DNA of 61,203 nt, taken from NCBI GenBank assembly GCA_021791515.1, contig JAJYWK010000012.1:1-61203 (forward strand). Direction: 5' to 3'. Shown piece after piece: positions 6,838-52,600 of the stretch (position 1 is its first letter; each line of letters starts with the position of its first letter). Source of the stretch: a bacterium. Its GTDB lineage: Bacteria > Patescibacteriota > Doudnabacteria > UBA920. Made by a program: the position numbers and the translations under genes. A model generated the notes under the pieces. That model saw only the letters and a program-made list of their open reading frames with translations. It made no database searches and had not been told where the DNA came from.

Positions 6838-6890
6838 TCCTGATTCCCTGCCTGCCGGCAGGCAGGTTAATTCTAAATTCTTGATTCTAT

Positions 6891-23263: not shown

Positions 23264-23408
23264 AAATAGATTATTCTTTATCGTATTTCCCCTCTCCAAT
23301 TCCTGGAGAGGGATCAGGGGAGAGGTTAAATACCTGGTTTCAAACCTCTCTGTCCCGCCTTCGGCGGGACATCTCCCCAAGCTTTGGGAGAAAAATAATG
23401 AATGAGCT
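23264..23408 (-). repeat. Intercistronic mosaic hairpin element, short form (class III)
   Basis: Fills the rplW-stop to rplB-start gap. Central hairpin GTCCCGCCTTCGGCGGGAC. Confidence 0.9.
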
Positions 23409-27437: not shown

Positions 27438-27773
27438 AAACTTTATACCTTTCTTTTTGATGAGTCAGTATGGATATTAATCCAATATGCCGATTCACCA
27501 ATCTGCCCGAGACCCCCTCACCGCTGCAGCGTATCGATCCGCCACAGTGCCGAGGGTATCTCTTTCTTTCCTTTCGGAATCCAGGGCAATAATTAATTTG
27601 TTAGTCAAAACTTATTTTAAAGATATTTAGCAGGTTTGTCAACCTACAATCCTAACACGGATATTACGGATTGGTCACGCCTGCCTGCCGGCAGGCAGGG
27701 AACTACTGATATCTGCGGATTTGATATCCGTAGTAATCCGTTTTTCCGTGTACAATCAGCAGATCCGTGTTAA

Positions 27774-28336: not shown

Positions 28337-30517
28337 TTACATTCCCTTACGCACGTTAATCCCCTGCCGGCTTTCAATAATTTTTTCCGCCACATTTCTT
28401 GGTACTTCGGCGTAGTGGTCAAATTCCATTGTGTAGGAAGCCTGACCCTGGGTCATACTGCGAAGAGCGGTGGCATAGCCAAACATTTCGGACAATGGCA
28501 CAAAAGCGTCTATAACCTTTAAGTGCAAGCGGTCGGTCATTTCGTTAATTTGCGCGCGTTTGGAATTCAAATCCCCAATCACGTCGCCCATGTTGGATTC
28601 CGGCGTAATAACCTCCACTTTCATAATCGGTTCCAAAATAATCGGATCAGCTCGCTTTACCACTTCCTGAAGACCCTTACTGGCCGCGATTTTAAACGCC
28701 ATTTCACTGGAGTCAACTTCGTGATAGCTTCCATCGTAAAGCGCGATGCGGAAATCCACCAAAGGATATCCGGCAATAACGCCATTAGCAGCGGATTCCT
28801 GAATACCTTTGTCAACAGGTTTAATAAATTCTTTCGGAATGACGCCGCCGACAATTTCGTCCACGAATTCATAGCCCTTGCCGCGCTCTAAAGGCTCAAT
28901 GCGCAAGTATACATGGCCGTATTGACCCTTACCGCCCGACTGGCGAATGTATTTGCTCTCGGCTTCGGCGGTCTTTTTTATAGTTTCCTTGTAAGCCACT
29001 TCCGGTTTGCCCACATTGGCTTCCACTTTAAATTCGCGCTTCATTCTGTCCACGATAATTTCCAGGTGCAGTTCGCCCATACCCGAAATAATAGTCTGCT
29101 GGGTTTCTTCGTCCCCGCGAATGCGGAAGGTCGGATCTTCTTCAGCGAGCTTGCTTAAAGCAATGCCCATTTTTTCCTGGTCAGCTTTGGTCTTGGGTTC
29201 AATGGACATGGAAATAACCGGCTCGGCAAACTTGATGGACTCCAGCATCATAGGCTTGTCCACGTCGCACAAAGTGTCGCCGGTAAAAGTATTTTTCGGG
29301 CCGACCAGCGCGCAAATGTCGCCGGCAAAAACTTCCTTAACCTCATCGCGCTGGTCCGCGCGCATTCTTACAATGCGTCCTACGCGCTCCTTGTCGCCGG
29401 TGCGCGCGTTAAGCACGTACGAGCCGGCTTCCAATTTTCCGGAATAAACGCGGAAAAAACACAGCCGGCCCACAAACGGGTCAGTGGCAATTTTAAAAGC
29501 CAAAGCCGTAAACGGCTCGTCGTCGGAGGGCTTTCTTTCTATTTCCGCGCCGGTTTTTAAATCGTGGCCTTTTACGTTGCCACGGTCTACCGGAGAGGGC
29601 AAAAAGTTAGTAACCGCGTCCAAAACTGTCTGCACAATAATCCCGCGCCCGTCGCCGCCTAAAACCGGGAAGAACTTGCCGCCCTGCACCGCCTTGCGAA
29701 TCGCGCTTAAAAATTCGGCTTCGGTTAATTCCTGACCGGCTAAATATTTTTCCATTAAAGCATCATCGCTCTCCACCACTTTTTCCAACAGCCGGTGGCG
29801 GTACTCTTTAGCCTTCTCCAGCATATTGGCCGGCACTTCTCCTACCGTGAATTCCTTATCCGTAAAATCTTTATAGGTATAGGATTTCATGTTAATCAAA
29901 TCCACCACGCCGTTGATTTCTTTTTCAAAACCAATTGGCAGTTGAATCGGAAAAGCATTCGGAGACAGGCGCTTGTGAATGGAATCCAAAGATTTGTAAA
30001 AATCGCCGCCGGTTTGGTTGATTTTATTAATAAAGCACATTCTGGGCACGCCGTATTTATCGGCCTGGCGCCAGACGGTCTCGCTTTGGGGCTCCACGCC
30101 CATTTTTCCGTCAAAAACTACAACCGCGCCGTCCAAAACGCGGAGCGATCTTTCAACCTCTACGGTAAAGTCCACGTGGCCCGGGGTGTCAATAATGTTG
30201 ATTTTGTGCCTTGCCCCGTTAAATTTCGCCGCAGGCGAACCGGCTTCGCCGGATTTAACGGGGTGAAGTATCGCCGGCGCTAATTTAATAAATTTCGGTT
30301 CCCAATAGCAGGTTACCGCGGCCGAGGTAATGGTAATACCGCGTTCGCGCTCCTGCTCCATCCAGTCGGTGGTGGTTTCGCCTTCGTGCACCGCGCCGAT
30401 TTTGTGGATCATGCCGGTGTTATACAAAACACCCTCGGTAACCGTGGTTTTCCCCGCGTCAATGTGAGCAATGATGCCGATATTCCTTGTTAACTCAATT
30501 GGATACTCTCTAGACAT
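28337..30517 (-). CDS. fusA: Elongation factor G
   Basis: [17 protein letters not shown], full-length 726 aa. Confidence 0.97.
30214..30263. repeat. 50-nt hairpin element inserted in-frame in the fusA G domain
   Basis: CCCCGTTAAAT ... ATTTAACGGGG 11-bp perfect arms enclosing two mini-hairpins. Lies in the segment [29 protein letters not shown]. Confidence 0.85.
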
Positions 30518-30750
30518 TTTAGATTTTAGATTTAATGATTTTGGATTGTAGGGGGCGGACTTGCCCGCCAGTTAATCGATTATATAGTATACCGATTTAT
30601 CGGTTTTAGTTTCTGTAGGCATCTGTAGTGCATTTCCTCTGTAGTTCTGTAGTACCTTTACAAACCTCTCTCTCTTTGATATTCTGACCTGTCACCATAA
30701 AGGGATACGGGCCTTGAGACCCTAAAGCCCGGCGAGAAAGGAGGAAGCCA

Positions 30751-31011
30751 ATGCTAATAAACGGCTATCATCGATGTCCACACTTGCCCTTGGATGTCGT
30801 AATCCACCACCAAGCAAACCCGGTGCAGTGGTTCCTAGAGCATAGAGCACCGGCGATTTCAGAACTCCGGATCCCCGAGAAGGTTTTCTTGCTCGCAATC
30901 TGGTTCTGCCCCATCTGCGGGCAGAATCTCAGCCAGCCACCAGAGGAAGCTCTGCCGCGCGACGGCCGGACGAGCGATCTGGATCTGCCCAAGGACTCGG
31001 TCCCCATCTGA
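30751..31011 (+). CDS. GC-rich small ORF (86 aa), convergent with the str operon
   Basis: AAGGAGG 6 nt before the ATG. HRCPH ... CPICG Cys/His pairs. Intrinsic terminator downstream. Confidence 0.5.
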   Translation: MLINGYHRCPHLPLDVVIHHQANPVQWFLEHRAPAISELRIPEKVFLLAIWFCPICGQNLSQPPEEALPRDGRTSDLDLPKDSVPI

Positions 31012-31035
31012 ACAGTACCTGCCGCCGCCACTCTC

Positions 31036-31078
31036 GCGCCGCGCCTGACCCTCCCGGTCTCGCGCGGCGCATTTTTTT
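31036..31078 (+). terminator. Intrinsic terminator of the 86-aa ORF
   Basis: GCGCCGCGC ... GCGCGGCGC stem, followed by ATTTTTTT. Confidence 0.6.
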
Positions 31079-31241
31079 GATTCAAATTACGTAATTAATT
31101 ACGTAATTATTTTTTAAAGTTCCTTATAAATGTATCGTCCTAAATTTATTTTAGGACCCATCCTTCTTTGTAGATTCTGAAACAAGTTCAGAATGACACT
31201 TCAGCGTAAGTCTGCGTTCAGTCCGCGTTAGTCAGCGCTGT

Positions 31242-31838
31242 TTATCTGCGTTTATTTCCAAACCTCGCAAAGTGCGCGAAGGCCTTGTTGGCTTCGGCCA
31301 TTCGGTGCACGTCTTCTCTCTTTTTCATGGCAATACCGGTCTTGTTATAAGCATCCAGTACTTCTTGGGCCAACTTTTCGGCCATGGGCACGCCTTTACG
31401 CGAGCGGGCGCCCAAAAGCAGCCAGCGCATAGCCAAGGTGGTGCGCCTCGGTTCCATAACTTCCATCGGCACTTGATAGTTAGCTCCGCCAATACGGCGG
31501 GATTTTAATTCCATAATCGGCGCCACGTTTTTTAAGGCAATGTCAAAGGCGGCTCTGCCGTCCAGTTTTTTCTCGGCCGGTGCGGCTTTTTTGGCATCCA
31601 CTGGCGCGGCCTTGTCGGCCGCTGCCGGTTTTGCCGCCGATGGAGTAGCCGGAGCGATAACCGGCATCTGGGCAATCTTCTCGCTCACAATATCCAGGGC
31701 AGTATAAAAAATCCTGCGCGCAACGGTTTTCTTGCCGCGCTCCATTATCAGATTAATAAATTTGGCGTACTTCACCGAGCCGTATTTCGGATCCGGCAAA
31801 GGCACGTGTTTGTCGTATGAACGTGATTTTCTAGGCAT
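31242..31838 (-). CDS. rpsG: 30S ribosomal protein S7 with ~36-aa Ala/Pro/Lys insertion
   Basis: MPRKSR..LPDPKYGS ... KSRRIGGANYQVPMEV. Confidence 0.93.
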   Translation of the reverse strand: MPRKSRSYDKHVPLPDPKYGSVKYAKFINLIMERGKKTVARRIFYTALDIVSEKIAQMPVIAPATPSAAKPAAADKAAPVDAKKAAPAEKKLDGRAAFDIALKNVAPIMELKSRRIGGANYQVPMEVMEPRRTTLAMRWLLLGARSRKGVPMAEKLAQEVLDAYNKTGIAMKKREDVHRMAEANKAFAHFARFGNKRR

Positions 31839-31990
31839 AATAGATTTTCCTTACAATTCTCCTCTCTCCAATTCTTGGAGAGAGGCCGGGAGAGAGGTTA
31901 AAACCTAAGTTTCAAACCTCTCTGTCCCGCCTTCGGCGGGACATCTCCCCTCCGCCAGCTGGCGGACTTGGGGAGAATAATAATGTAAAA
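31839..31990 (-). repeat. Intercistronic mosaic hairpin element, short form
   Basis: Fills the rpsL-stop to rpsG-start gap; modules GTCCCGCCTTCGGCGGGAC and CCGCCAGCTGGCGG. Confidence 0.9.
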
Positions 31991-32404
31991 CTATTTTCTC
32001 TTCGCTCCATACTTGCTTCTTGAGCGTTTCCGACCGTCAACGCCTAATGTATCCAACTTCCCTCTTACAATGTGATAGCGCACGCCGGGCAAATCTTTTA
32101 CCCTACCGCCACGAATCATAACCACGCTGTGTTCCTGCAAGTTGTGGCCAATGCCGGGAATATAGGCAATTACTTCCATCCCGTTGGTGAGTTTCACTTT
32201 GGCAACTTTGCGCAAAGCAGAGTTCGGCTTTTTTGGCGTGGTGGTATACACCTTTAAGCACACGCCGCGCATAAACGGCGCTCCGGTTTTTATGTGCAGG
32301 GTTTTATTTTTGATTAAGTTGACGCGGCGCATAAGCGCAGGGCTTTTGCTCTTGTACTTAAACGGATGCCGCCCTTTTCGAACTAATTGGTTGATTGTTG
32401 GCAT
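31991..32404 (-). CDS. rpsL: 30S ribosomal protein S12
   Basis: [13 protein letters not shown]. Start at the internal ATG; the upstream 67 codons of the tracked ORF are repeat sequence. Confidence 0.93.
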
Positions 32405-32590
32405 AAATAGTCCATTCCTTATTCGGTTCCCCTCTCCAATTTCCGCCAGAGGCGGATCTGCCTTAGGCATGACATGGAGAGGGGTCAGGGGAGAGGTTAA
32501 AAACTTAGATTTCAAACCCCTCTGTCCCGACGAGTCGGGACATCTCACCTCCGCCAGCTGGCGGACTTGGGGAGAAAAATAATGATTAAA
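32405..32590 (-). repeat. Mosaic hairpin element in the rpsL leader
   Basis: Same head (GGTTCCCCTCTCCAATT...) and tail modules as the intercistronic copies; abuts the rpsL ATG. Confidence 0.9.
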
Positions 32591-32847
32591 TCTATCTTGG
32601 CGCAATAAAAACTGATTATAGACATCAGTTTTGCGTCTACTTCGCTCATTCGGTACTCATCAGAAACCGCTGATGTTGCTTCCCAAACAAGTCGACTAAA
32701 ATTGAGTAATTCAACCACAGATTTTTATCGCAGATAAACACTGATAACTTTATCTGTGCCATCTGTCCCAATCTGCGCCCGCCTGCAACGCTATGCGTAG
32801 CATTGCGGGCAGGTATCTGCGGTCGGGTTTCTTATTCAATTAAACGT

Positions 32848-32877
32848 ATTATACCTTAGCTGTGGCTTAACTGTCAA
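32848..32877 (-). promoter_or_regulatory. Sigma-70-type promoter of the str operon
   Basis: Minus strand: TTGACA (32877-32872), 18 nt, TATAAT (32853-32848). Confidence 0.55.
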
Positions 32878-32885
32878 ATTAATTT

Positions 32886-32914
32886 TTGACATCTTTTTTC
32901 AAATCCTGTAAATT
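32886..32914 (+). promoter_or_regulatory. Promoter of the 85-aa plus-strand ORF
   Basis: TTGACA (32886-32891), 17 nt, TAAATT (32909-32914). The ATG lies 10 nt after the -10 box. Confidence 0.5.
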
Positions 32915-32924
32915 ATACGACAGT

Positions 32925-33182
32925 ATGCAACCACAAACGCCTGATACCGAACCCAGCCCGCTCACTGTGGGCAGCGATGTATTGGCCATCACGAGCCCTG
33001 TTGACGTTGTCGGCAGGTCACGCGTAGTGCCAATGGGGGGCAAGTATCGGATAACCGAAATCTTGCCTGGATTCAGCGAAGGTCAACTCCACGCCCGTGT
33101 GGGGGAAATCAAGGAGGATGGAACCGTGAAACCGGTACCCGCACTTTTTCACCTTTCCAGCTTCAGAGCGGCGACCGCCTGA
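32925..33182 (+). CDS. GC-rich small ORF (85 aa), probably near-leaderless
   Basis: MQPQTPDTEPSPLTVGSDVLAITSPVDVV... has protein-like composition. No SD; promoter directly upstream. Confidence 0.5.
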   Translation: MQPQTPDTEPSPLTVGSDVLAITSPVDVVGRSRVVPMGGKYRITEILPGFSEGQLHARVGEIKEDGTVKPVPALFHLSSFRAATA

Positions 33183-33282
33183 TACAAGAGCGCCTATTCG
33201 GCGCAAACAACAAAAGCCGATCCTCGCGCCCGTCACACCAGTGGCAATGGGCGAAAGGAAAGGCTTTTTCTCTTTTTTGGTA

Positions 33283-33891
33283 TTAAAAAAACCTAAGGCC
33301 AAAAATTGTGCCGAACCACAAAATCACAGGTACTAACAAATAATTCAGCCACCCCAGATACAAAAATAAAAGCACCAATAAAAACCCATAGCGCTCCAGG
33401 GATAAAATTTTCTCCATCCAGGCATTAGGCGCCAAAGAAGCCAAAATTTTACTGCCATCCAGCGGCGGAATCGGCACCAAATTAAAAGTCCCCAAAACCA
33501 AATTAATTAAAATCCCCTGCATTAATATTGGATAAGAAATCTCATTTGCCAACCCCAGCTTAATCGGCAAAACCAACAAAATAGCGAGCGCAAAATTAGA
33601 CAAAGGGCCTGCTAAACTTACCAAAGCCATACCCTTCTTTGGCTCCCTTAAATTATTAAAATTCACTGGCACCGGCTTGGCTGCGCCAAAAATAATCGGA
33701 GAACCTACGCTTAGTAAAATAAAGGGCAATAAAATGCTGCCAAACGGATCTATATGGGGAATTGGATTTAAAGTAATTCTCCCTGCTTCCCTGGCCGTGT
33801 CATCGCCCAATTTTTCCGCCATAAGGCCGTGCGCCACTTCATGCACTATGGCGCTAAATATTAAAATGATAAATGTAATTAGAATGTCCAT
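33283..33891 (-). CDS. Site-2 protease (M50) family membrane metalloprotease
   Basis: HEVAHG and NLVPIPPLDGSK. Start at MDILITF; the upstream codons are repeat sequence. Confidence 0.85.
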   Translation of the reverse strand: MDILITFIILIFSAIVHEVAHGLMAEKLGDDTAREAGRITLNPIPHIDPFGSILLPFILLSVGSPIIFGAAKPVPVNFNNLREPKKGMALVSLAGPLSNFALAILLVLPIKLGLANEISYPILMQGILINLVLGTFNLVPIPPLDGSKILASLAPNAWMEKILSLERYGFLLVLLFLYLGWLNYLLVPVILWFGTIFGLRFF

Positions 33892-34040
33892 AAAAAAATA
33901 AAGCCTGAAACATGAAGCATGATACATGTTTTATATTTCATGTTTCATAATTTTTCCCTTGACCATTATACCAAACTATGTTAATCTGTTCTAGATACTT
34001 AATACTTAATACTTAATACTAAATACAAGATACTTATTCC

Positions 34041-34214
34041 ATGCCCAGACAATGCGCCGTTTGCAATAAAACTTACTCCCGCACCATAAAGCGCTCTCAT
34101 TCCATGAGACCTTCTATTGTGCGCCTTTTGCCTAACTTACAGTATGCGGTTTTTGACGGCCAGCGCGTAAAAGCCTGCGCGAGATGCATAAAAACCCAGA
34201 ACAAAGGCAAGTAG
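34041..34214 (+). CDS. rpmB: 50S ribosomal protein L28 (57 aa)
   Basis: Own translation: MPRQCAVCNKTYSRTIKRSHSMRPSIVRLLPNLQYAVFDGQRVKACARCIKTQNKGK*. Below the ORF-track length cutoff. Confidence 0.85.
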   Translation: MPRQCAVCNKTYSRTIKRSHSMRPSIVRLLPNLQYAVFDGQRVKACARCIKTQNKGK

Positions 34215-34252
34215 AGCCGCGGACCATACGCGGATAAACGCTGAAACTTAAA

Positions 34253-34280
34253 GGCCGCCCAAAAACGGGCGGTCTTTTTT
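34253..34280. terminator. Terminator between convergent rpmB and the Cys-rich mini-gene
   Basis: GGCCGCCC AAAAAC GGGCGGTC TTTTTT. Confidence 0.65.
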
Positions 34281-34287
34281 ATACCTG

Positions 34288-34455
34288 TCATTCTCCATCC
34301 ACAGCGTCCGACTTCGGCATAACTTCTTCGTGATTACCGTCGGTGCAATTACATTCCACTAACGGCTGGTTATGCATTCGACAGCTTTCCGCCTGGCAAT
34401 TGCCAGGCTGGTCCGAGACCCCGCCGCAATCGCCGGTGCAAACATAATGAACCAT
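34288..34455 (-). CDS. Cys-rich small protein (55 aa)
   Basis: Own translation: MVHYVCTGDCGGVSDQPGNCQAESCRMHNQPLVECNCTDGNHEEVMPKSDAVDGE*. Contains 7 Cys. Confidence 0.5.
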   Translation of the reverse strand: MVHYVCTGDCGGVSDQPGNCQAESCRMHNQPLVECNCTDGNHEEVMPKSDAVDGE

Positions 34456-34527
34456 ATAATTTTTAAATTTAAGATTTATAATTAAAGGATTAAAACTTGT
34501 TATCTTACATCTTATATCTTACATCTA

Positions 34528-36252
34528 TTAGTGCCCGAAAAATCCTCTCGCGTCCTTGTCCGGGAGCATAACCAAAGTTATTTTGTTATCTTCGCAAAAC
34601 TTTTTAACTTCCTCATCGCGCACACTGCCGGAAGTGGCGAAGATGGTTGTAATGCCGGCGTTAAATAAAACCTGAACACCGTCCACAAACGGAAAAAAGC
34701 TGTCGCTGTAGGCAGTGGCATTCTTAACATCATGACCCGCGTCAGTTGCGCGTTTTATGGCCAACTGACAGCAACCCACCCTGTCCTGCTGACCCACGCC
34801 GTTTCCAAGCAGCTGATTATTTTTTACGACCGTGACCGTGTTGCTATTGCTGGTAGAGCCAATTGCCCAGGCTAAAATGATATCCGATTTTTGCTGGTCT
34901 GATAAATTCCCTATTCGTGTCATTCGGGTAGAATTCGTGTCATTCGGGTCGGACAAATTTGGTATAAATGAATAATTTGGCTGTTTTAAAAACCCGCCGC
35001 GCACGTAGCGAAAACGAGAATGTTGATCGAGAGAATTTTTAGAAAGCGATGTGAGAGCCGGATTAACTAAAAATCTGCACTTGTCGCCTTTTCGCTTCAT
35101 TAGTTCTATAGCTTTCTGATCAAAATCCGGCGCAATAATTCCGTCCAGCAAACGCCTTCCCGATTCCATACGATGAGTTAAAAGTACCTCTGCCAACTCT
35201 TCATCTATTTTAAAATTTACCATTACTACTCCGCCGAATATTGCGCGCAAATCCCCTTCCAGCATTTTTTGGATTGCGGTTTTAGCGTCTTGTGATGCTG
35301 ATGCCCCGCACGGATTTCCATGTTTGACCCCAACTGCAATATTCAATTTAGACCTCCCCTCCCCAAGACTTGGGGAGGGGTCGGGGGAGAGGTTGATTTT
35401 ATTCACATCAAACCCCGCGGCTATGTGGGTCATGGTCTGCAAGAGCCTGTCAACATCCGCCAAATTATTGTAAGACGGCGCCGTACCCGCAACTAACTTA
35501 AAATTAGAAATTGCTAATTCATCTTCAATTTCGTTTTTAAACAGCCCAGCCGGCACCTGCCAGGCATTCTCTCCGTATTTAAGGCCCAAAACTTCATGGG
35601 CAACCACGCCGCCAATCTTGCCTTGGGCATGATAGCGGGCTGAAGCCAAAGCATAATCAGACACAACAAATTCCGCTTTGGCGCAATATTTGTTTATAAA
35701 ATTTTCCCTATCCGGCTCGCCGTTTTTTAACCACTCGATTATTTTTGGCCTATCTTCGGGATCACAGACAACTATGCGTCGGCCCTTTGCCGCGCTTCTT
35801 AGCATTGTCGGCCCGCCAATATCGGTTTTTTCTAACACAGCTTCTAATCCTTTTTGTTTCTCTCCCCAAGTTTGGGGAGAGTTAGAGAGAGGTTGATGTT
35901 TAGTAATCTCCTCCGAAAGCGGATACAAATCCACGCAAACCAAATCTATAAACGGAATATGCAAACGATCCAACTCTTTTCGATCCTCATCAATATCCCG
36001 CGCCAAAAGCCCGGCATGGATTTCGCGCGACAGTGTAACCACGCGGTGGCCCAAAATCGCCCCACCGCCGACAAGCGAAGCCACATCTGTGGTCTCAATG
36101 CCGGCATCGGATAACACCTTGGCCGTCCCCCCGCTGGCTAAAATTCTAAAACCCAAAGCAACCAGTTCTTTGGCAAACTCCACAATCCCTTCTTTATTGA
36201 AAACCGAAATTAAGGCTATCCTGTTCTTTACATTTTGATCAATCATAATCAT
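34528..36252 (-). CDS. purH: Bifunctional AICAR transformylase / IMP cyclohydrolase
   Basis: MGS-like N-terminus (SVFNKEGIVEFAKEL..GGTAK), GVKHGNPCGAS, AYSDSFFPF. Confidence 0.9.
   Translation of the reverse strand: MIMIDQNVKNRIALISVFNKEGIVEFAKELVALGFRILASGGTAKVLSDAGIETTDVASLVGGGAILGHRVVTLSREIHAGLLARDIDEDRKELDRLHIPFIDLVCVDLYPLSEEITKHQPLSNSPQTWGEKQKGLEAVLEKTDIGGPTMLRSAAKGRRIVVCDPEDRPKIIEWLKNGEPDRENFINKYCAKAEFVVSDYALASARYHAQGKIGGVVAHEVLGLKYGENAWQVPAGLFKNEIEDELAISNFKLVAGTAPSYNNLADVDRLLQTMTHIAAGFDVNKINLSPDPSPSLGEGRSKLNIAVGVKHGNPCGASASQDAKTAIQKMLEGDLRAIFGGVVMVNFKIDEELAEVLLTHRMESGRRLLDGIIAPDFDQKAIELMKRKGDKCRFLVNPALTSLSKNSLDQHSRFRYVRGGFLKQPNYSFIPNLSDPNDTNSTRMTRIGNLSDQQKSDIILAWAIGSTSNSNTVTVVKNNQLLGNGVGQQDRVGCCQLAIKRATDAGHDVKNATAYSDSFFPFVDGVQVLFNAGITTIFATSGSVRDEEVKKFCEDNKITLVMLPDKDARGFFGH
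35351..35396. repeat. Palindromic module inserted in-frame in purH
   Basis: GACCTCCCCTCCCCAAGACTTGGGGAGGGGTCGGGGGAGAGGTTG; encodes LSPDPSPSLGEGRS. Confidence 0.85.
35860..35897. repeat. Palindromic module inserted in-frame in purH
   Basis: CTCTCCCCAAGTTTGGGGAGAGTTAGAGAGAGGTTG; encodes LSNSPQTWGEK. Confidence 0.85.
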
Positions 36253-36272
36253 TTTTTATTTAATAAAACCTT

Positions 36273-37103
36273 TTATAAATTATTTCTATGTATATTTATA
36301 AACTTTTGAGCCAGCAAGTCACTTTGCCCTATAACATTTTGTTCATTCTCAAAATCTGCTTGCCAATCTGAAGCAGTGGAATACCGCCCCAAAATTCTAA
36401 CGGGGTTTGTTGTGCGCAATCTGTTTAAATTAGGTACCGGGGCAACCGAACTTATGGCGCCCGCCAATCCGCGCGAGGGTACAAATTTTCTTTTGCCTTT
36501 GGTTGCCAGCACAAAATCTGTCGGATTTACTGAGAAACTATAAACCATTTTGCTTCCTTCCATGTGTTCTAAAACATATGGAAGTCCGCCATAAAATTGC
36601 ATTTTATTTCCGCTCTGCTCTATTCCCCCGCTTGGAAACATTAAAAATAACCCGCCGGACTTAATATGCTCAATAGCCGAATCCAAGGCTTGTTTGGCGG
36701 GTTTGTATTCTTTTGGTTTCAATTCAATAAAATTCTCTTTGCCTAAATTACCCGCGAATGCCGGATATGTACTATCATTAACTAAAATTTTAAAATCTTT
36801 TCTCACCTGTCCGGCCCTATTTTTTACCATTTCCAATGCAATTGGGATATCAAAAATTCCGGGATGATTTGCTATTACCAAACCCGGTTCAGTAAGTAGC
36901 CTGTCCATATTTTCCGCTCCGCTGAAATCCGGTTTAACATTCCATAAATTAAATATGCTTTCTGAGTAATGGTCAATCGCCCTGTTGCCATAATTCATTC
37001 TGGTTTTTACCAACTCATCCTCAAAAGCCATAGCTCCAAAAAGGTGATTGCCTTTATCTACCTCCTTTTTGATACGGCCTCCAATTTCCGACAATAAACG
37101 CAT
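36273..37103 (-). CDS. PlsC-like acyltransferase family protein
   Basis: NHPGIFD (HX4D-type) and FPSGG motifs. Start at MRLLSEIGG. Confidence 0.55.
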   Translation of the reverse strand: MRLLSEIGGRIKKEVDKGNHLFGAMAFEDELVKTRMNYGNRAIDHYSESIFNLWNVKPDFSGAENMDRLLTEPGLVIANHPGIFDIPIALEMVKNRAGQVRKDFKILVNDSTYPAFAGNLGKENFIELKPKEYKPAKQALDSAIEHIKSGGLFLMFPSGGIEQSGNKMQFYGGLPYVLEHMEGSKMVYSFSVNPTDFVLATKGKRKFVPSRGLAGAISSVAPVPNLNRLRTTNPVRILGRYSTASDWQADFENEQNVIGQSDLLAQKFINIHRNNL

Positions 37104-37108
37104 AAAAA

Positions 37109-37636
37109 TTATCCTTTCCACTCCCTGTCTAAAATTGACATATGGTAAACATCCCAAAACTTTCCTTTGTGATAATTATGTTCCCTCTTAACGCCCTCTT
37201 TCTTAAAACCCAACCGCTTATAAACCTTAAGCGCTCTCGGGTTATAGCCAAAAACATCCAACTCAACCTTATGCAGTTTCATTTTTTCAAATCCATACTT
37301 TAAAATCGTCCTTGCCGCATCGGTGCCCAGCCCTTTGTTCCAATAGCTTTTTTCGCCGATAAAAATTCCCAATGTCGCGCGCTTATGCTTTACCTCAACT
37401 CTTTCCAAACTTACCACGCCAATATGCTTATGCTCCAAAGTCTCTATGGCAAACCGTTTATCTGTTTTATTCTTTAAGCTATCTCTAATCCATTTCCGTT
37501 CTTTCTTTAAAGTAAGATGCCGCGCTTGGGCCTGTAAATATTGATAAACCTTAGGGTCATTAAGCCACTTCACAAACCGCTCGGCGTCAGATAGCCGAAC
37601 ATGCCGGAGTGTAACTTTATCTCCTTTAATAACCAT
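37109..37636 (-). CDS. GNAT family N-acetyltransferase (RimJ/RimL-like)
   Basis: VTLRHVRLSDAERFVKWLNDP ... typical GNAT core. Start at MVIKGDK. Confidence 0.8.
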   Translation of the reverse strand: MVIKGDKVTLRHVRLSDAERFVKWLNDPKVYQYLQAQARHLTLKKERKWIRDSLKNKTDKRFAIETLEHKHIGVVSLERVEVKHKRATLGIFIGEKSYWNKGLGTDAARTILKYGFEKMKLHKVELDVFGYNPRALKVYKRLGFKKEGVKREHNYHKGKFWDVYHMSILDREWKG

Positions 37637-37673
37637 GATGGAATTATACCAAAAAAACCCTTTTTGGGGCATT

Positions 37674-38246
37674 TCAAAACTTAACATTTAACTTTTCCAA
37701 AGCATTGTACACAAAACCCAAAGGCAAGCCTAAATTGTTGTTAAAATCGCCGGTCATTTTCTCCAATAAGTTAAACCCAATTCCCTGCGGACTAAACCCG
37801 CCGGCTTTGTCATAAGGGTGCCCGCGCTTGATGTAATCCAAAATATCTTTCTGCTCTAATTTTCTAAAATAGATTTTAGATTTTGTGACATTGGTAATGA
37901 GCCTACCGGTCTTGGCATCCAACACCGCTGTGCCGGTAATAAATTCGTGATGCTTGCCGGAAAAATCCTTAAAATTTTGAATAGCTTCTTGTCTGGTTTT
38001 TGGCTTGCCGATGATTTTACCTTTAAAGTAAGCCACGGAATCCGCCGCTATAATAATAGCTTTTGGATATTTTTTTGCCGCGGCTTTGGCTTTGCCTAAA
38101 GCAAGATATTTTACCAATTGTTCAACGCTTAAGTGTTTATGCACAACTTCCTCATAGCCGGAATCAACGGCCTTAAAAGGAATGCCAAAAAGCTTAAACA
38201 TTTGCCTCCGACGCGGACTAATTGTGGCTAAAATAATTTGTCTCAT
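37674..38246 (-). CDS. maf: Maf-like nucleoside triphosphate pyrophosphatase
   Basis: ILATISPRRRQMF, IIAADSV, DKAGGF. TGA stop. Confidence 0.85.
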   Translation of the reverse strand: MRQIILATISPRRRQMFKLFGIPFKAVDSGYEEVVHKHLSVEQLVKYLALGKAKAAAKKYPKAIIIAADSVAYFKGKIIGKPKTRQEAIQNFKDFSGKHHEFITGTAVLDAKTGRLITNVTKSKIYFRKLEQKDILDYIKRGHPYDKAGGFSPQGIGFNLLEKMTGDFNNNLGLPLGFVYNALEKLNVKF

Positions 38247-38381
38247 CTCATTAGAATTCAGTTAATTTTATTCTTCGAGCGTAGCGCTAGCGAAGTCGAG
38301 AAGATAAAATTATAGTATAAAAATTTAGGTTCTCCACAAGGTCGAACACTATTATTTAACTGTCGTGTAAGTCCTAATTTT

Positions 38382-38840
38382 TTAAACTTTCTCCGCCCAT
38401 GGTTTTAAATTCGCACCAATGTTCATTACCAAGGCAATCAAAACCAAATTTTTTATAATATATTGTCCTTCCAAAGTCGGAGTTAAAAAACTCTGCCAAG
38501 CCACAGCAGGTAAAAATACCAAGGGCATAAAGGTAGTGCCCATATGCAAAACAAACAGAGCGATGGCAATCCGGTCAAACTTCTTAAACAAAAACAAAAC
38601 GCCAATTAGCATCTCAAAAAGGGCAAAGCCAACAATAAACTGATGGAAGCTTAAAAAAGGCAGGGTTTTTTGCTGCAGCTGCATTACCAAAGGATTGGCC
38701 GGGCTGGTATCTAAAATTTTTAATATTCCAAACCAAAAGTAAACAATAAACAAAGCAAAACGGGCAAAATAAGGGTGGAATCGCCTTAATTGTTCTATAA
38801 GCTTGGCATCTAATTGTTGAATTTTTGGATGTATAAACAT
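38382..38840 (-). CDS. Hypothetical integral membrane protein
   Basis: 152 aa, 4 predicted TM segments. Confidence 0.6.
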   Translation of the reverse strand: MFIHPKIQQLDAKLIEQLRRFHPYFARFALFIVYFWFGILKILDTSPANPLVMQLQQKTLPFLSFHQFIVGFALFEMLIGVLFLFKKFDRIAIALFVLHMGTTFMPLVFLPAVAWQSFLTPTLEGQYIIKNLVLIALVMNIGANLKPWAEKV

Positions 38841-38921
38841 AAAGCTATTATAACAAATATTTTTTAAATCACCAGTTCCATTTTCCCCAAGTATCTGTTA
38901 AAATATCAAAAGGTAAATTTT

Positions 38922-39163
38922 CGGGCTGTAGCCCCATAGTAGTTCCGGCAAGCCGGAACACTACGGGGTAAATATAGCTTGCCCTGTTAAATATTTGCCC
39001 TTGTACGGGATATAGTATAATGGTAGTACGCGTGCATGGGGTGCATGTAGCCCCGGTTCGATTCCGGGTATCCCGACCACGGGCAAATAATATTTAACGG
39101 GGTGAAGTAGTACGCGTCCATGGGGTGGATGTAGTCTGGGTTCGATTCCCAGCAGCCCGACCA
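38922..39163 (+). other. Disrupted/outer tRNA-Pro(GGG)-like gene enclosing the intact tRNA-Pro
   Basis: CGGGCTG (38922-38928) is perfectly complementary to CAGCCCG (39151-39157), which is followed by ACCA. The 3' part has the anticodon arm CGTCC-ATGGGGT-GGATG and the T arm CTGGG-TTCGATT-CCCAG. The D region is interrupted by hairpin elements and tRNA-Pro. Confidence 0.5.
39006..39079 (+). tRNA. tRNA-Pro (anticodon GGG), CCA encoded
   Basis: Hand-folded cloverleaf: CGGGATA/TATCCCG acceptor, GTAT/GTAC D stem, CGTGC-AUGGGGU-GCATG anticodon arm, CCCGG-TTCGATT-CCGGG T arm, A73, CCA. Confidence 0.9.
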
Positions 39164-39270
39164 TGACGAAAATTACTACAGGGTAAAGGTGCGTGCTCGC
39201 CCCGTAGCATCCCGCCGATGGCGGGATTGCTACCGGGGTAGTCCGAGTTCGATTCTCGGCATCCCGACCA
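39164..39270 (+). other. tRNA-derived fragment (T arm + acceptor 3' strand + CCA) fused to a long hairpin
   Basis: ...CCCCGTAGCATCCCGCCGATGGCGGGATTGCTACCGGGG TAGT CCGAG TTCGATT CTCGG CATCCCG ACCA. No matching 5' acceptor strand found. Confidence 0.6.
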
Positions 39271-39348
39271 CGGGCAAATATTTCACTGTTCGTTTCCCAG
39301 TCTACCCCGTAGCCAACCGAAGGTTGTGCTACCGGGGCAGCCCGACCA
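39271..39348 (+). other. tRNA-derived fragment (acceptor 3' strand + CCA only) fused to a hairpin
   Basis: GGGCAAATATTT... CCCCGTAGCCAACCGAAGGTTGTGCTACCGGGG CAGCCCG ACCA. Confidence 0.55.
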
Positions 39349-39384
39349 TTCGATGATGCTTGTGGTCTGTGGTCGAAAGACAAT

Positions 39385-39404
39385 CCCGCCTTTGGGCGGG
39401 TTTT
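39385..39404 (+). terminator. Weak intrinsic terminator after the tRNA-Pro cluster
   Basis: CCCGCC TTTG GGCGGG TTTT. Confidence 0.4.
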
Positions 39405-39422
39405 AAATTGACAAAATTTCAC

Positions 39423-40930
39423 TTTTTTTTACCAGAAATGAAACAGCCGAGACAACAGTTTCTTATTGCAACTGGTCATCGCAATAATACTTATGTTTAT
39501 CTCGGACTGTAAGCATGCGCCATGTATTGCCCCTAGGCCACCTGGGGGGACTATGACACTGTTTGTACCCGGCCCGGAGCCGGGCTCATAACTATTTACC
39601 TCCTTAAAATTGAAAACCAAAAAAGCAAAACGCCCCTACTGGCCTGGTTGGCCAAAAGACCTAAACGATTATTGTAAAACCGAGTTGGTCTTGGACGTCA
39701 ACTGCCGTTTGGCTGCGCTTTGCGCGCTAAGCTTGACCCAAACTTTTTGGCCAAACTTACCAAGCAAGTACAGCTGCTTTAATATATAGGACTTACGCAT
39801 TTAGCCAAGTTCAAGGCATTTTCCCTGCCTGCGGCAGGCAGGCGAGGATATTTGGAGCCGTAGTTTAACTACGGCGACAAATACCGAAAGACAAAATAAC
39901 GCATCGGGGTTCCCCGAAAATCTGAAAGATTTTTGGGGTGATCAAGAAATTGGCTAAACTTTAGCGCAGTTGCCCTGAAATGCGGGCAAAGCCTGCATTT
40001 TGGGCAACTAGTGCGTAAGTTCTAAAAAATAAAATGAACGGCCCCGGGCAGTTGCTCATGATCTCGCGATCACAAGTACTTGCCCGGGGGTCTCTGCCGC
40101 CGTTTCGGTCACCCCCCTCGAGGTTGGGTGAAGCTCGTCCCACTCTGATGTAATGAGGGGAGCAAAGCTTCGACAGTGTGAGGTGCCGCAACGGACGACA
40201 GGTCTGTGGCATCAACTTTCTACCACCTTACGATGGTTTGCCCGAGTTGATTGCTCAGGCAGGCTGATGCCGAGTTGCATTTCTGGCGGTTTTTTGATGA
40301 CAGCCTGGTTGACTGCCAAAACCTGCTACCATAGCAGGCCGCCAGCGAAACGGCTAGGTGGCCGCAAATCTTGCGGCCAATCCAGCCCACTCCGCCGAAA
40401 AGAATGGCTCCGGCGGCGGAGCGGGCTCCCCATTCTCCACGCACTCCTGGCACACCAGGCCCTCCTGGTGATTACTGTCGAATGCGGGAATATGGGGTGT
40501 CATGCATCTGCACGCATGACAGAACTGAATATTTTCAGCTCCAGCCATCTCTGGCCCTCCTTAGACACCATCGCCTCGTGCTTGATTAAGGCGACGGTTT
40601 TGCACGGCCAGGTTTCCCCGGCCAGCACTGGGGTGGGTGGTTATTCCAATTTTCAGCCATTGAACGCGGGCTGAATTAACTGGACAGGAGCCTGTGGCTC
40701 ATCAGAGACCGCTCTGACTGGTTCCCTTAACCTTCACCATTAAGGAAACCAACTTACCACCCAAACTGGTGGGCGCTTTGAGAGCATTTGCCGTTTGTAA
40801 CAGCAAATTTGGAGTTCGGACATACGCCGGCGTCCCCAGCTCTCATTGCGCCCGTAACTTTTGCGAAGCTCTTACGCTCGCGGCAATAAAATCAAAATTA
40901 TTAATTTTACTGCCCCAAACATTAGGCTTT
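39423..40930. other. GC-rich, ORF-poor, hairpin-dense region (candidate large structured RNA or island remnant)
   Basis: Only short, Arg/Cys-rich or overlapping ORFs. Hand count of line 40321-40380 gives 37/60 G+C, versus 17/60 for line 38401-38460. Many perfect nested stems. Confidence 0.5.
40354..40548 (-). CDS. Small zinc-ribbon-like protein (64 aa)
   Basis: GGAGGG 6 nt before the ATG. FCHAC ... CQEC Cys pairs. Hairpin CCTGCTA-TGG-TAGCAGG plus TTTT downstream. Confidence 0.5.
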   Translation of the reverse strand: MAGAENIQFCHACRCMTPHIPAFDSNHQEGLVCQECVENGEPAPPPEPFFSAEWAGLAARFAAT

Positions 40931-40953
40931 AAAAAAACCCGCCTTGCGCGGGA
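40931..40953 (-). terminator. Intrinsic terminator ending the parB / four-helix-bundle transcription unit
   Basis: Minus strand: CCCGC GCAAG GCGGG, followed by TTTTTTT. Confidence 0.6.
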
Positions 40954-41181
40954 TTTGGTTTTGCTTTGATTTTTTTAAAAAAATCTTACGCCAAATCCCT
41001 ATTTTTAATAACCCAAACCAAGCCCTTAAAAAGGACCGGGAGGGTAACAATAGAGTTGCGGCGAAAATTCATCATAATTTATACTAACTTGATTTAACTA
41101 AAGTATACGGATTTTAAAAAGTTTGTCAAACGGAGTTATCCAGAGGGTGTAGGGTTGAGGGTGTAGGGTACAGAAGCTTAT

Positions 41182-43042: not shown

Positions 43043-43117
43043 TTAACTCCCCCTAACCCCCTCTTATAATAAGAGGGGGAAAGTTTGGTGCCTTTGGGCT
43101 GATATAAGGCTGCTTTA

Positions 43118-43357
43118 TGGTGCCGGTGGTCGGAGTCGAACCGACATGCCGTTAGGCGCGCGCTCTTGCCTGTCCGCCGCAGTCCCGCCGCAAGGCGGGA
43201 CGAAGGCGGAAGGCGCGTGTGCCCTGTACAAATGGTGCCGGTGGTCGGAGTCGAACCGACATGCCGTTAGGCGCGCGCTCTTGAGGCGCGTGTGTCTGCC
43301 ATTTCACCACACCGGCACCAACTGTACAGGGTAAATCTGCCATTTCACCACACCGGC
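43118..43357 (-). pseudogene. Outer tRNA-Leu(CAA) gene split by a 114-nt insert (containing the inner tRNA-Leu) and a 42-nt hairpin
   Basis: Segments 43357-43336, 43221-43211 and 43168-43118 concatenate to exactly the 84-nt sequence of the inner tRNA. Confidence 0.85.
43233..43316 (-). tRNA. tRNA-Leu (anticodon CAA), class II, CCA encoded
   Basis: Hand-folded: GCCGGTG/CACCGGC acceptor, GTG/CAC D stem, CGCGC-CUCAAGA-GCGCG anticodon arm, 13-nt variable arm, GTCGG-TTCGACT-CCGAC T arm, A73, CCA. Confidence 0.92.
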
Positions 43358-49619: not shown

Positions 49620-52600
49620 TTATATTACAAGATTTATCAATCTGTCCTTCACAAAAATCACTCGCTTAACGCTTTCCCCCACCAAAGCTTGTTTTACCGC
49701 CGGCAACTGCATAACCAGTTCTTTTACCGCCGTTTCCTCGCTTCCGCTTGGCGCTGTAATTTTACCTTTTACCCGGCCGTTAATCTGTAAAACAATTTCC
49801 ACTGTCTTATCAATTATCATAACCGGATCAAACGAAGGCCAACTCGCTGTTTGCAAAGTTGTCTGACTCTTTGACTTTCCGATTCTCTGATATAATTCCT
49901 CCGAAATATGCGGCGCAAACGGATACAGTAAAACTAAAAACTTTTTTACCGACTCTAGGGTAATAAATTCATCTTTCACTTCGTTATGGAATTCCATAAA
50001 CGCGGAAATGCAGGTATTAAACCTAAACGCCTCTATGTCTTCGGTAATTTTCTTGATCAAACGATTCAAACTTCTTTCGACTTTCTCTGTATCTTTTACT
50101 TCCGACTCACCGACTTCCGACCTTCCGACCTTCCGACCCGCCGATTTCTGATGCGGCGCCTCTGCAATTTCGTTCACCCAGCCCCAAACCCTGTCTAAAA
50201 ATCTGCGCACTCCCACCACGCCCTTATTATTCCACGAAACCATGGCCTCATGCGGACCTAAAAACAATTCATACATCCTTAAAGTATCCGAGCCATAAGT
50301 TTTTACAATATCGTCCGGATTTACCACATTACCCCGGCTCTTGGACATTTTTTCGCCATCTGGCCCCAAAACAATTCCGTGCGGATGGCGTTTGGCATAA
50401 GGTTCGCTCTGGGATACCAAACCTTGGTCATACAAAAACAAATTCCAAAAACGCGAGTATAGCAAATGCAAAGTGGTGTGTTCCATACCGCCAAAATAAA
50501 CATCAACCGGCGTCCAATACTTCTGTTTTTTCAACGACGCAAATTCTTTGGCGTTTTTGGAATCCGCGTATCTTAACCAATACCAGGAACTTCCCGCCCA
50601 TTGCGGCATGGTGTTGGTTTCGCGCCAGGCCAATTTTTTGCATTTTGGACATTTAGTTTTTACCCATTTTTCAATATCTGCCAAAGGCGACTCGCCGGTG
50701 CCGGTGGGTTCGTATTTTTTTACGTTAGGTAATTTAACAGGCAAATCTTTTTCCGGCACCGGCACAGTACCGCAATCTTCACAGTGAATAAGGGGGATTG
50801 GCTCGCCCCAATAGCGCTGGCGGGAAAATACCCAGTCACGGAGCTTGTAATTTATAACTCTTTTTCCATAACCCTTTTCTACCATATAATCCATAATCTT
50901 TTCCGTCGCCGCGTGAATATCCATTCCATTCAAAAAATCGGAATTAACCATAATGCCTTCGTCTTCCTGAACTTGATCTAGCGATGTTATGTCGCCTGCA
51001 TCATTGGCGTTTTTTTGCACCACTCTTTTAACTTCCAATTTGAAAACCTGGGCAAATTCAAAATCGCGCTTGTCGTGCCCGGGCACGCCAACTACCGCCC
51101 CTGTCCCCACGTTGCCTAAAACGTAATCCGCCACATAAAGCGGCATTTTAAAATTATTTAAAGTATTTATACAATACAAACCCGTAAAGACCCCTGTCTT
51201 TTTTCTATTTTCAGCCGTTCTATCCATATCGGCTGCCTCCACTGCCTGCTTTTGATACTGTTCAATTTCCTTCCAAATTTTTTCTTCAATGCCTAAAATA
51301 TTCCTGTCTTTTAAAAGCGGATGTTCCGGCCCCAGCACTACAAAAGTCGCTCCAAAGTTGGTGTCAGGACGGGTGGTAAAGCAAGTAATTTGTGGTAACA
51401 AAATATTTAAAATTAAAGGTTCTTCCTCATTGGTAAAATGCGGCTTCAAGCCATTCTGCTCAATAAGGGCGCCATTTAATTTTTGACTTAAAATTTTTCC
51501 CTGTTCAATAGGAATAGCAAAGTCAGTTGGATCACTAAGCACGGTGATTGATTTGGCTTTATTTTTTATAGTTTCAAAATCAAACTTCCAATTAAACTTG
51601 GCGTGATAATTTCTGGGTCGATCTTTAAATCGTGGCTCAGTAAAACCACCGGCTAAAACTAATCCTGCTATTTTAATAGGTAGTTTTTCCAAAACTTTCA
51701 TTGCCACCACTGCGCCCAAACTGTGTCCAAAAAGAATAGTGTTTTCATCAAACTGACAATTTTGCAATACAAAACTAACCTGTTCTTCCTCCGTAGGCTC
51801 GCTTGCGTTAGGCAGCTGCGGAGCTTGATATTTAACACCTTGCTTATTTAGTTCCTTTTTAAGCGAAGGAAAGAATATTCCATCCGGGGTGCCCTTAAAC
51901 CCATGCAATAATACATAATTATTTTTTAAGTCAAAATTATAGGTGATATTTATCCCTGTCTTTTTTCCAATCCAATTCTCCTGCTGGAGTTTTACCGCCT
52001 CCGGCCACTCGGGCAGATTTTTTAAACCTTCCAATAATTTTTCCGCGTACGCGGTAATTTTTAAATACCACTGCCTAAGTTCTTTCTTTTCAACAGTTGT
52101 TCCGCAGCGTTCGCACTTGCCGTCTATAACTTCTTCGTTGGCAAGACCGGTTTTGTCCTTGGGGCACCAATTAATTACGCCTGTAGACTCGTAAGCCAAA
52201 CCCTTTTTAAAAAATTGCAAAAACAGCCATTGCGTCCATTTGTAGTAGCTTGGATCGGTCGTGTTTACCTCTCTGCTAAAATCAAAACTCAACCCCCAAC
52301 TAAGCATCTGTTTTTTGGCGTTTTTAATGTTGGTTTCCGTGGTTTTGGATGGATGCACACCCATTTTTATGGCATAGTTTTCCGCTGGCAAACCAAAAGC
52401 ATCCCAGCCAATTGGAAAAAGCGTTTCAAAACCTTTCATCCGGTGATAACGGCTATAAACATCACCGGCGACATAAGGCCTTAAATGTCCCATGTGCAAA
52501 CCCGCGCCGGAAGGATACGGAAATTCCACCAGCACGTATTTTTTTAGCTTTCTGGAAAAATCTTTGGCAAAAAAAGTTTTTTTTGTCAGCCAAAATTTTT

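Follow-up and report, generated by a model that had tools for sequence, protein, structure and literature searches.

A GC-rich intergenic block of a Doudnabacteria genome: a probable mosaic that includes one copy of a conserved, repeated structured element

The contig JAJYWK010000012.1 (assembly GCA_021791515.1), from an uncultivated member of the Doudnabacteria (Patescibacteriota), is 61,203 nucleotides long and is referred to here, at its full length, as the window. Between positions 39423 and 40930, beside a tRNA-Pro cluster, it contains a GC-rich, stem-dense block that a sequence-only reading had presented as a candidate large structured RNA or the remnant of an integrated element. The analysis described below indicates that this block is probably a mosaic of three adjacent units and not one gene. 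Unit 1 (40930–40027, minus strand) would be a structured messenger for a small zinc-ribbon protein that ends at an intrinsic terminator. Unit 2 (39785–40026) is one copy of a structured element, here named E, that would be an interspersed repeat in the manner of the repetitive extragenic palindromic (REP) sequences and bacterial interspersed mosaic elements (BIME) or of the Correia/ERIC elements. Unit 3 (39423–39784) would be a species-specific structured spacer between E and a set of degenerate tRNA-Pro repeats. The stretch of Unit 3 is also called Part 1, and the Unit 1 side of the block Part 2. The most valuable product of the analysis is the E family.

Element E is a conserved structured repeat

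The covariance model R1 identified exactly one copy of E in the window, an expanded form of 242 nt (39785–40026; 100.6 bits, E-value 5e-22) on the plus strand, which is the strand of the model, with the flanking genes on the other one. No other E-like module was found in the block when R1 was used with its filters off. The basic form of E is about 165 nt long and consists of a closing helix of approximately 13 bp (P1), a helix P2, the enclosed co-axial helices P3 to P5 and a 3′ branch hairpin. Reading inwards, P2 is followed by an invariant tandem G.A loop, P3 (AUUUUSC/GSAAAAU), P4 (GGAUKUUUG/CAAAMACC), a second invariant tandem G.A loop and the P5 hairpin. The branch hairpin, located between the 3′ strands of P2 and P1, is variable and occurs as two alternative types. 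Other hairpin modules are gained or lost among the copies, and the one in the window, whose fold has a z-score of −10.9, carries two inserted modules, CCTGCCTGCGGCAGGCAGG and CGGGGTTCCCC...GATTTTTGGGG.

A pattern built on the E core matched a single related metagenome-assembled genome (MAG) in the GTDB representative set, where two copies lie within 6.9 kb, and a looser 24-base pattern matched 50 loci in the Joint Genome Institute (JGI) metagenomes. The E pattern had no match on viral contigs. Forty-one distinct full-length copies from groundwater and peat metagenomes were aligned and scored against the hand-drawn P1–P5 structure. Standard pairs accounted for 94.0% of the cells, compared with 31–44% when the pairing partners were slid, and 26 of the 46 pairs showed changes on both sides (169 cells). 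The covariation score was 0.262, against 0.111 ± 0.005 in shuffled alignments and at most 0.052 in the slid controls, and none of 500 shuffles reached any of the measures; in this comparison 24 columns are fixed by the search pattern and the shuffle control is not tree-aware. The closing helix P1, with 13 bp, 96% of the cells paired and changes on both sides at 12 of its 13 pairs, has the properties of terminal inverted repeats. Collecting homologs and analyzing their covariation had been proposed as the check on a structured RNA. For E, the substitution pattern indicates that the fold is maintained by compensatory changes.

E is present in more than one copy in several genomes: two in the species of the window (E1 and E2), two in L013 and two in L056, with weaker second matches in L034 and L050, and all copies are intergenic. 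None of the 4227 Rfam families matches E or the block, and an Rfam search of E in eight other loci returned nothing at an E-value of 1 or lower. A limited set of full-text literature searches on the candidate phyla radiation found no description of E-like structured elements or repeats. We consider E a previously undescribed, widely conserved structured element with several copies per genome, found in Doudnabacteria as well as in related Patescibacteria.

The orientation of E was examined through its helices and through its neighbors. On the modelled strand the helices include 52 G.U versus 20 A.C pairs, 36 of the 41 copies fold more stably on that strand (mean difference 5.5 kcal/mol, Wilcoxon p 3e-8), and only there do the tandem G.A loops constitute a recognized RNA motif. 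These three features favor the modelled strand. As for gene context, 27 of the 36 genes located 5′ of E and 30 of the 36 located 3′ are opposite to that strand, and in 17 of the latter 30 the stop codon is at most 10 nt from the end of E. Viewed in gene orientation, E is placed past stop codons, in the way of REP or attC sites. The flanks of the 41 copies contain no promoter signal at a fixed position upstream of E. E may affect the 3′ ends of transcripts or undergo mobilization as a hairpin.

A 20-nt palindrome, CCTGCCTGCCGGCAGGCAGG (CCTGCCTGYCGGCAGRCAGG), was found at 6847–6866, 27680–27699 and 53105–53124 of the window, with a degenerate version at 46790. The same palindrome is inserted at one and the same P3/P4 junction in 6 of the 41 E copies, including that of the window (39826–39845); the other loci that carry it are L013, L014, L028, L037 and L052. 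Its distribution suggests a mobile mini-hairpin.

Natural strains differ by an exchange between two E copies

Strain variants were defined as contigs encoding exactly the flanking proteins of the window. The arrangement of the window was found in one ENA assembly (L001/L008), and a different one in two independent assemblies, the MAG GCA_027424835.1 and a second ENA assembly. In the latter arrangement, 28382–39958 of the window is present in L002/L003 (99.97% match) and is followed there by a CAP-domain gene, while L009/L010 match the window from 46872 down to 39844 and then continue into hrcA-grpE-dnaK. The overlap between the two matches, 39844–39958, is the 115-nt conserved core of an element of about 240 nt that has two copies in that genome, the second copy of E being located between the CAP-domain gene and hrcA. 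The sites of exchange are L002 1990–2240 and L009 6845–7070, corresponding to 39785–40026 of the window, and short-read contigs of other runs end at the same site. These comparisons showed that a reciprocal exchange between two E copies, with its breakpoints in the 115-nt core, distinguishes the natural strains.

Compensated changes distinguish the closing arms of one copy from those of the other (ACTTACGCA/TGCGTAAGT versus ACTTCCACA/TGTGGAAGT), and the arms are complementary only in the arrangement of the window, in which the two elements fold with −118.4 and −105.4 kcal/mol, versus −105.3 and −95.8 kcal/mol for the hybrids. Since the arms pair only in that arrangement, the order in the window would be ancestral, and the other strains would be reciprocal recombinants of the two E copies. 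Homologous recombination between the two copies would account for the difference in chromosome order among strains.

A putative zinc-ribbon gene within a predicted structured transcript

Unit 1 is assigned to the minus strand. Its predicted fold begins with a structured 5′ leader of about 370 nt (40563–40930) composed of a three-way domain (40853–40771), a five-way domain (40763–40634) and hairpins at 40624–40605 and 40598–40567, of which the last is retained in L070 with 3 compensatory pairs. A consensus Shine-Dalgarno sequence, AAGGAGG (40556–40562), lies 7 nt 5′ of the ATG, and its AGGAGG is kept in L070. The open reading frame (ORF) that follows (40354–40548; MAGAENIQFCHACR...), taken from the ORF list and supported by a homologue, would encode 64 amino acids that combine a CxxC-x19-CxxC zinc-ribbon pattern with a C-terminal helix. 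The ORF is wholly contained in a five-hairpin domain whose closing helix is predicted to pair the start region with the stop region. Downstream, a structured 3′ untranslated region (40090–40353) is predicted to fold into three multi-helix domains, and the unit ends at an intrinsic terminator (40027–40089) that consists of a G+C-rich stem (40089–40044), a helix already given as an example in the sequence-only reading, and the U-rich tail GUUCAUUUUAUUUUUU (40043–40027). The hairpin ends and the tail (GTTCATTTT) of this terminator are homologous in the sister species L068, so its position is conserved. A simple terminator scanner did not list it because the stem-loop exceeds the loop limit of that program and the U tract begins 3 nt past the stem.

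A word-indexed search of 5.8 billion proteins returned only the 64-amino-acid ORF itself. Exhaustive HMMER comparison with 1.84 billion representative proteins identified one full-length relative, P0124, encoded on a 363-nt contig of 58% GC. The two proteins align end to end with 44% identity (E-value 5.7e-6) and have in common the motif FCxAC...TPHI...CxxCxExGxP...EPF..WAxLxAxFAA, and all three length differences between their genes are of 3 nt each. The Shine-Dalgarno sequence, the ATG and the TAG are conserved in L070. The ribosome-binding site, the conserved frame and the full-length homologue are those expected of a protein-coding gene. The single-sequence AlphaFold2 model, whose overall predicted local distance difference test score (pLDDT) is 60, has a C-terminal helix and a beta-hairpin core with pLDDT 72–75. 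A scan of viral contigs with a zinc-ribbon alignment found nothing.

The RNA of this region also shows signs of constraint, as 7 base pairs of the predicted fold are kept between the window and L070 by changes on both sides. In our reading, coding and RNA-structure constraints overlap in the region of the ORF. The leader, the coding region and the trailer of Unit 1 would all be under RNA-structure constraint, and the transcript would be either a very stable or regulated messenger or a dual-function RNA. From the features described above we infer the transcription of the units, the translation of the ORF and all the functional roles proposed here.

The slot is occupied in sister species

Sister Doudnabacteria, in which the flanking protein is 77–79% identical, keep the gene order ParB-(IVP)-gap-tRNA-Pro-YkgB-like. 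Every gap opens with the same module of about 190 nt, located downstream of parB/IVP and formed by a promoter, a micro-ORF and a terminator (window 40986–41129, minus strand; L064 8950–9150; L066 8860–9060; L068 8590–8800; L073 4865–5070). The sigma-70-like promoter, TTGACA-16-TATACT (41129–41102, minus strand, in the window), is shared by all five of the Doudnabacteria loci that were compared. The same five loci encode a micro-ORF of 29 to 32 amino acids, which in the window has 29 (MMNFRRNSIVTLPVLFKGLVWVIKNRDLA; 41075–40986, minus strand). The peptide is conserved at the amino acid level (xNxxRHNSxxTLPVLxKGLVW); its ORF has no Shine-Dalgarno sequence and no family match. A bidirectional terminator hairpin (40938–40952, both strands) ends the micro-ORF unit on the minus strand with a seven-U run, and a counterpart is found 3′ of the micro-ORF in the four relatives.

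Past this module the DNA is species-specific, GC-richer (0.50–0.58 GC) and unalignable by blastn. The four sister loci each carry 0.9–1.3 kb of such DNA in the slot, with no empty site among these four. A small Cys-rich ORF behind a good Shine-Dalgarno sequence is present in the slot of the window, L064, L066 and L073, i.e., in 4 of the 5 species; the likeness of the window ORF to the other three is architectural only. Searches of Pfam, PHROG and NCBIfam found no match for the small ORFs of the slot. The recurrence of a small Cys-rich ORF in 4 of the 5 related species argues for vertical inheritance, and the occupancy of the slot across relatives fits a fast-evolving resident locus. Two other small ORFs preceded by Shine-Dalgarno sequences were observed in the slot, one of 52 amino acids and Arg-rich (L066 9395–9553) and one of 56 amino acids and acidic (L073 5735–5902), neither with a family match.

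Composition and folding of the block

The block has a GC content of 51.0%, compared with 43.7% for the whole window (standard deviation 3.0% for 1508-nt windows), and ranks 19th among 1194 windows of equal size, all the higher-ranked ones overlapping it. The sequence-only reading was right in describing it as GC-rich, and its hand counts (37/60 and 17/60 G+C) were exact on recount; its description of the surroundings as strongly AT-rich was overstated, the genome being 44% GC. Nearly all genes of the window are on the minus strand, and 38841–41181 is the longest ORF-free gap within it. The claim that the block has no convincing ORF holds for the plus strand, which is ORF-poor, and overlooked the minus-strand ORF of 64 amino acids with its Shine-Dalgarno sequence. 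The 173-amino-acid plus-strand ORF had no homologue in the word-indexed search of 5.8 billion proteins, and a degenerate back-translation scan of the JGI metagenomes found no relative of a 180-amino-acid plus-strand frame.

Minimum free energy z-scores in 200-nt windows range from −3 to −8.5 over the block, against a window-wide mean of −0.95 (standard deviation 1.9; dinucleotide shuffles). The minus strand of 40027–40960 folds with −462.8 kcal/mol, versus −328.7 kcal/mol for the shuffles (z −21), and its plus strand with −393 kcal/mol (z −8). The stem density that had been noticed by eye is non-random structure of the RNA type, far beyond the shuffled controls. All the helices named at that time were found (40044–40050 with 40081–40087, 40719–40731 with 40739–40751, and 39969–40007), and so were the terminator-like hairpins that delimit the block (39385–39400 and 40938–40952). 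In the helix 40719–40731/40739–40751 the only mismatch, a C.A on the plus strand, is a G.U on the minus strand. Over the whole block the predicted helices include 63 G.U pairs on the minus strand versus 29 on the plus strand, with a GC skew of about 0. The conflicting strand signals reported earlier are explained by the preference of E for the plus strand and of the rest of the block for the minus strand.

At the gathering threshold, Rfam 15 detected only tRNAs in the window. At an E-value of 10 or lower nothing credible beyond tRNA was found between 38800 and 41300, where GOLLD, ROOL, HEARO, OLE, 6S, introns and riboswitches were unmatched; the lack of RNase P, tmRNA or signal recognition particle (SRP) signatures in the block was confirmed in the same way. 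When the window, the block, L013 and eight E-bearing loci were searched, Rfam reported only tRNAs and, elsewhere, a fluoride riboswitch. Tandem repeats are absent from the block, which excludes a TIGR- or CRISPR-like array. Visual inspection also ruled out hammerhead, K-turn and CsrA-type GGA-loop motifs, whose core sequences or loop geometries were not present. When the whole gap was compared by sensitive blastn with 350 kb of related contigs and with the gaps of the sister species, nothing aligned apart from E, the tRNA, the micro-ORF unit and the terminator.

The spacer and the tRNA side

The spacer that corresponds to Part 1 (39423–39784) is moderately structured, its predicted fold having z-scores of −4.5 on the minus strand and −2.8 on the plus strand, and its helices include 21 G.U pairs on the minus strand versus 5 on the plus strand. 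It is common to both strain arrangements (L002/L003 and the window), has no homologue in the 350 kb of related contigs and contains no ORF of at least 22 amino acids with a Shine-Dalgarno sequence. At 39587–39549 (minus strand) an AAGGAGG followed by a 9-nt spacer and an ATG leads merely to a 12-codon ORF, MSPAPGRVQTVS.

The tRNA-Pro(GGG) gene, recognized by ARAGORN and Rfam, lies at 39006–39079 on the plus strand, and in the sister species L064, L066 and L068 it has the same position, opposite to the genes. Three degenerate partial copies of it follow on the plus strand (39098–39163, 39214–39270 and 39328–39350; direct-repeat family D11), of which 39098–39160 obtains an Rfam tRNA score of 31.8 bits. 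The sister species have one tRNA only and lack the partial copies. These copies are degenerate 3′ parts arranged in tandem 84–107 nt apart, each preceded by a CCCCGTAGC-(stem-loop)-GCTACCGGGG hairpin (38930–38975, 39200–39240 and 39300–39335), and the third is similar to an acceptor/T-arm minihelix with ACCA at its end. An intrinsic terminator (39385–39404, plus strand) with a 6-bp all-G-C stem followed by TTTT closes the cluster. Elsewhere in the window an exact second copy of the 3′ 52 nt of tRNA-Leu(CAA) lies 115 nt downstream of the gene (43117–43168 and 43232–43283), so that tRNA-Leu and tRNA-Pro show the same kind of short-range 3′ duplication.

Alternative explanations

The whole 1.5 kb could instead be one large minus-strand structured non-coding RNA in which E and the ORF are domains. 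The strongly negative z-scores and the minus-strand excess of G.U pairs run unbroken from 39423 to 40930 except at E, there is no Rfam family match, and the conservation between the window and L070 is nucleotide-like rather than codon-like, all of which such an RNA would accommodate; like GOLLD, ROOL, HEARO, OLE and raiA, the block is GC-rich, ORF-poor and densely structured, and some GOLLD and ROOL loci are also adjacent to tRNAs. We nevertheless find a single RNA very unlikely. A strong internal terminator, 40089–40027, conserved in L068, lies within the block, and E is autonomous, occurring in more than 40 other contexts without the rest and preferring the other strand. In the second strain arrangement Part 1 is beside the CAP-domain gene and Part 2 beside hrcA, and both arrangements persist in nature. 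The Shine-Dalgarno sequence, in-frame indels and full-length protein homologue indicate coding. The block differs from the large non-coding RNAs, and from RNase P, tmRNA, SRP and 6S RNA, in that no model matches it at an E-value of 10 or lower, in being split by a terminator and a repeat, and in its probable ORF. Of the proposal of a large structured RNA, the genuine structure and the absence of a known family are supported, and the single RNA of about 1.5 kb is not.

A decayed remnant of one or more elements integrated at the 3′ end of tRNA-Pro is unlikely, and at best weakly possible for part of the block. The support is circumstantial: the block is directly 3′ of tRNA-Pro, three extra partial 3′ copies of that tRNA are lineage-specific, the GC content is 7 points over the genome, the content of the slot is unalignable between sister species, the only homologue of the ORF is on an unrelated contig of 58% GC, and the nearby tRNA-Leu also has an exact 52-nt 3′ duplicate. 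In their position at a tRNA 3′ end, repeated tRNA 3′ segments and deviant GC, tRNA-targeted integrative elements and islets resemble the block. The search for integrase or mobile-element genes found none, either with Pfam in six-frame pieces of at least 45 amino acids or in the ten longest stop-to-stop frames (best E-value 0.02, chance level). A prophage or plasmid origin was not supported either, with no blastn match to GenBank phages or PLSDB plasmids. No tRNA-derived repeat that could serve as a distal att site lies at or near 40930; such repeats are only proximal (39098–39350), and the spacings of the tRNA fragments, 84–115 nt, are too small for elements. The block, unlike such elements, measures only 1.5 kb. 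Moreover, the slot is filled in all five related species with the same micro-ORF and terminator, in four of the five with a small Cys-rich ORF, and one of them shares the 40089–40027 terminator.

It is also very doubtful that the hairpins are non-functional, i.e., small palindromic insertions or quasi-palindromes "corrected" by template switching that accumulated in a tolerant intergenic region. The mobile-looking mini-palindrome CCTGCCTGCCGGCAGGCAGG, present in the genome and in E copies, and the modules that come and go among those copies are what such a process would leave. No hairpin of Part 1 or Part 2, however, recurs in the window or in the 350 kb of related contigs, the G.U asymmetry toward the minus strand is strong in spite of the GC skew near 0, and several hairpins are kept in L070 with compensatory changes.

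A mosaic of three units remains the probable reading, and several observations weigh against it or parts of it. The differences between the window and L070 are distributed evenly over codon positions (24/22/20), and 23 of the 27 conserved residues have the identical codon, with only 4 synonymous differences. A protein-like excess of third-position or synonymous change was not found between the ORF and L070, and because the substitutions are RNA-like the 64-amino-acid ORF might be incidental to a conserved RNA. BLASTP of the window ORF against that of L064, the only pair tested, gave an E-value of 4.8, and hhalign a probability of 23%. No strong promoter was detected between the upstream terminator (40938–40952) and the ORF, the best candidate being a 9/12 match at 40933–40904, and for this reason Unit 1 may depend on read-through from the promoter at 41129. 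Gene context suggests that the reverse complement of E is co-transcribed with its neighbors. Part 1, and Part 2 outside the ORF region, have no homologues, so their structure is a thermodynamic prediction from a single sequence.

Comparison with known elements

Element E resembles the REP/BIME of Enterobacteria and Pseudomonas, which are associated with RAYT proteins, in being interspersed, multi-copy, intergenic and often located right after a stop codon, as well as in forming hairpins, being a mosaic of small palindromic modules and acting as a recombination substrate; its P5 hairpin includes GTAG...CTAC, as REP/BIME do. REP sequences are palindromes of 20–40 nt, whereas E has 165 nt, five helices plus a branch, and internal loops that are invariant across many species, and there is no sequence similarity between them. 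Miniature inverted-repeat transposable elements (MITEs) such as Correia (NEMIS), ERIC and RUP share with E a size of 100–200 nt, terminal inverted repeats through which the entire element folds, the presence of several copies and a location at gene ends, and many E ends read TA|GGAC...GTCC|TA in a MITE-like fashion. The outermost pair of E, however, covaries (T-A or C-G) and belongs to a helix rather than to a TA target duplication as in MITEs, its internal helices show compensatory changes across species that neutral MITE decay does not produce, and its copy number is so far low for a MITE, 2 per contig or MAG. Integron attC sites are also conserved in structure, located 0–10 nt past the stop of co-oriented genes and dependent on one preferred strand. 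Unlike them, E lacks RYYYAAC/GTTRRRY boxes and shows high internal sequence conservation; no integron integrase was seen, and E has core genes as neighbors, e.g., rplT, hrcA and the gene of a CAP-domain protein.

The 64-amino-acid ORF is comparable to small C4 zinc ribbons (the DksA/TraR finger, ribosomal proteins L32/L33) in its CxxC-x19-CxxC pattern, predicted beta-hairpin core and C-terminal helix. It differs from known zinc ribbons in having no match in Pfam, NCBIfam or PHROG and a single known homologue.

Other features of the window

Repeated structured intergenic elements of about 120–240 nt were observed directly upstream of start codons in the ribosomal-protein/translation cluster, at 14393–14641, 15125–15373, 15727–15985, 16536–16699, 17362–17646, 18157–18427, 19760–19998, 21203–21378, 23273–23416, 31845–31997, 32384–32598 and 35340–35394. 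Their motifs include CCCCTCTCCAATTCCTGGAGAGGGG and GGGGAGAGGTT, and their folds reach z-scores of −8 to −11, stronger on the gene strand. Runs with an 8-nt period (CTTCCGAC / CTCACCGAC) at 3373–3484 and 50106–50153 lie within long minus-strand ORFs and are probably coding repeats.

Significance

Patescibacteria (candidate phyla radiation) have tiny genomes, and to our knowledge the literature describes very few of their non-coding or repeat elements. E is well supported and widely distributed, and the covariance model R1 now permits modelling it and searching for it across the radiation. It also provides a concrete case in which a repeat has mediated rearrangement of the chromosome among co-existing strains of an uncultivated symbiont. 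Unit 1 would be a rare instance of a small-protein gene located wholly inside conserved RNA hairpins, which bears on dual-function RNA and on the evolution of micro-proteins. More generally, a GC-rich, stem-dense island can be composite, and opposite wobble asymmetries within it are a clue.

A bolder proposal, to which we give a small but real chance, is that E constitutes a novel class of functional, structured RNA in the Patescibacteria, transcribed opposite its neighbors and with the tandem G.A loops acting as protein-binding sites, and that the adjacent unit is a dual-function RNA selected for its fold and not only for its 64-amino-acid product. If this were true, the locus would hold two undescribed RNA classes in a lineage with almost no known non-coding RNAs.

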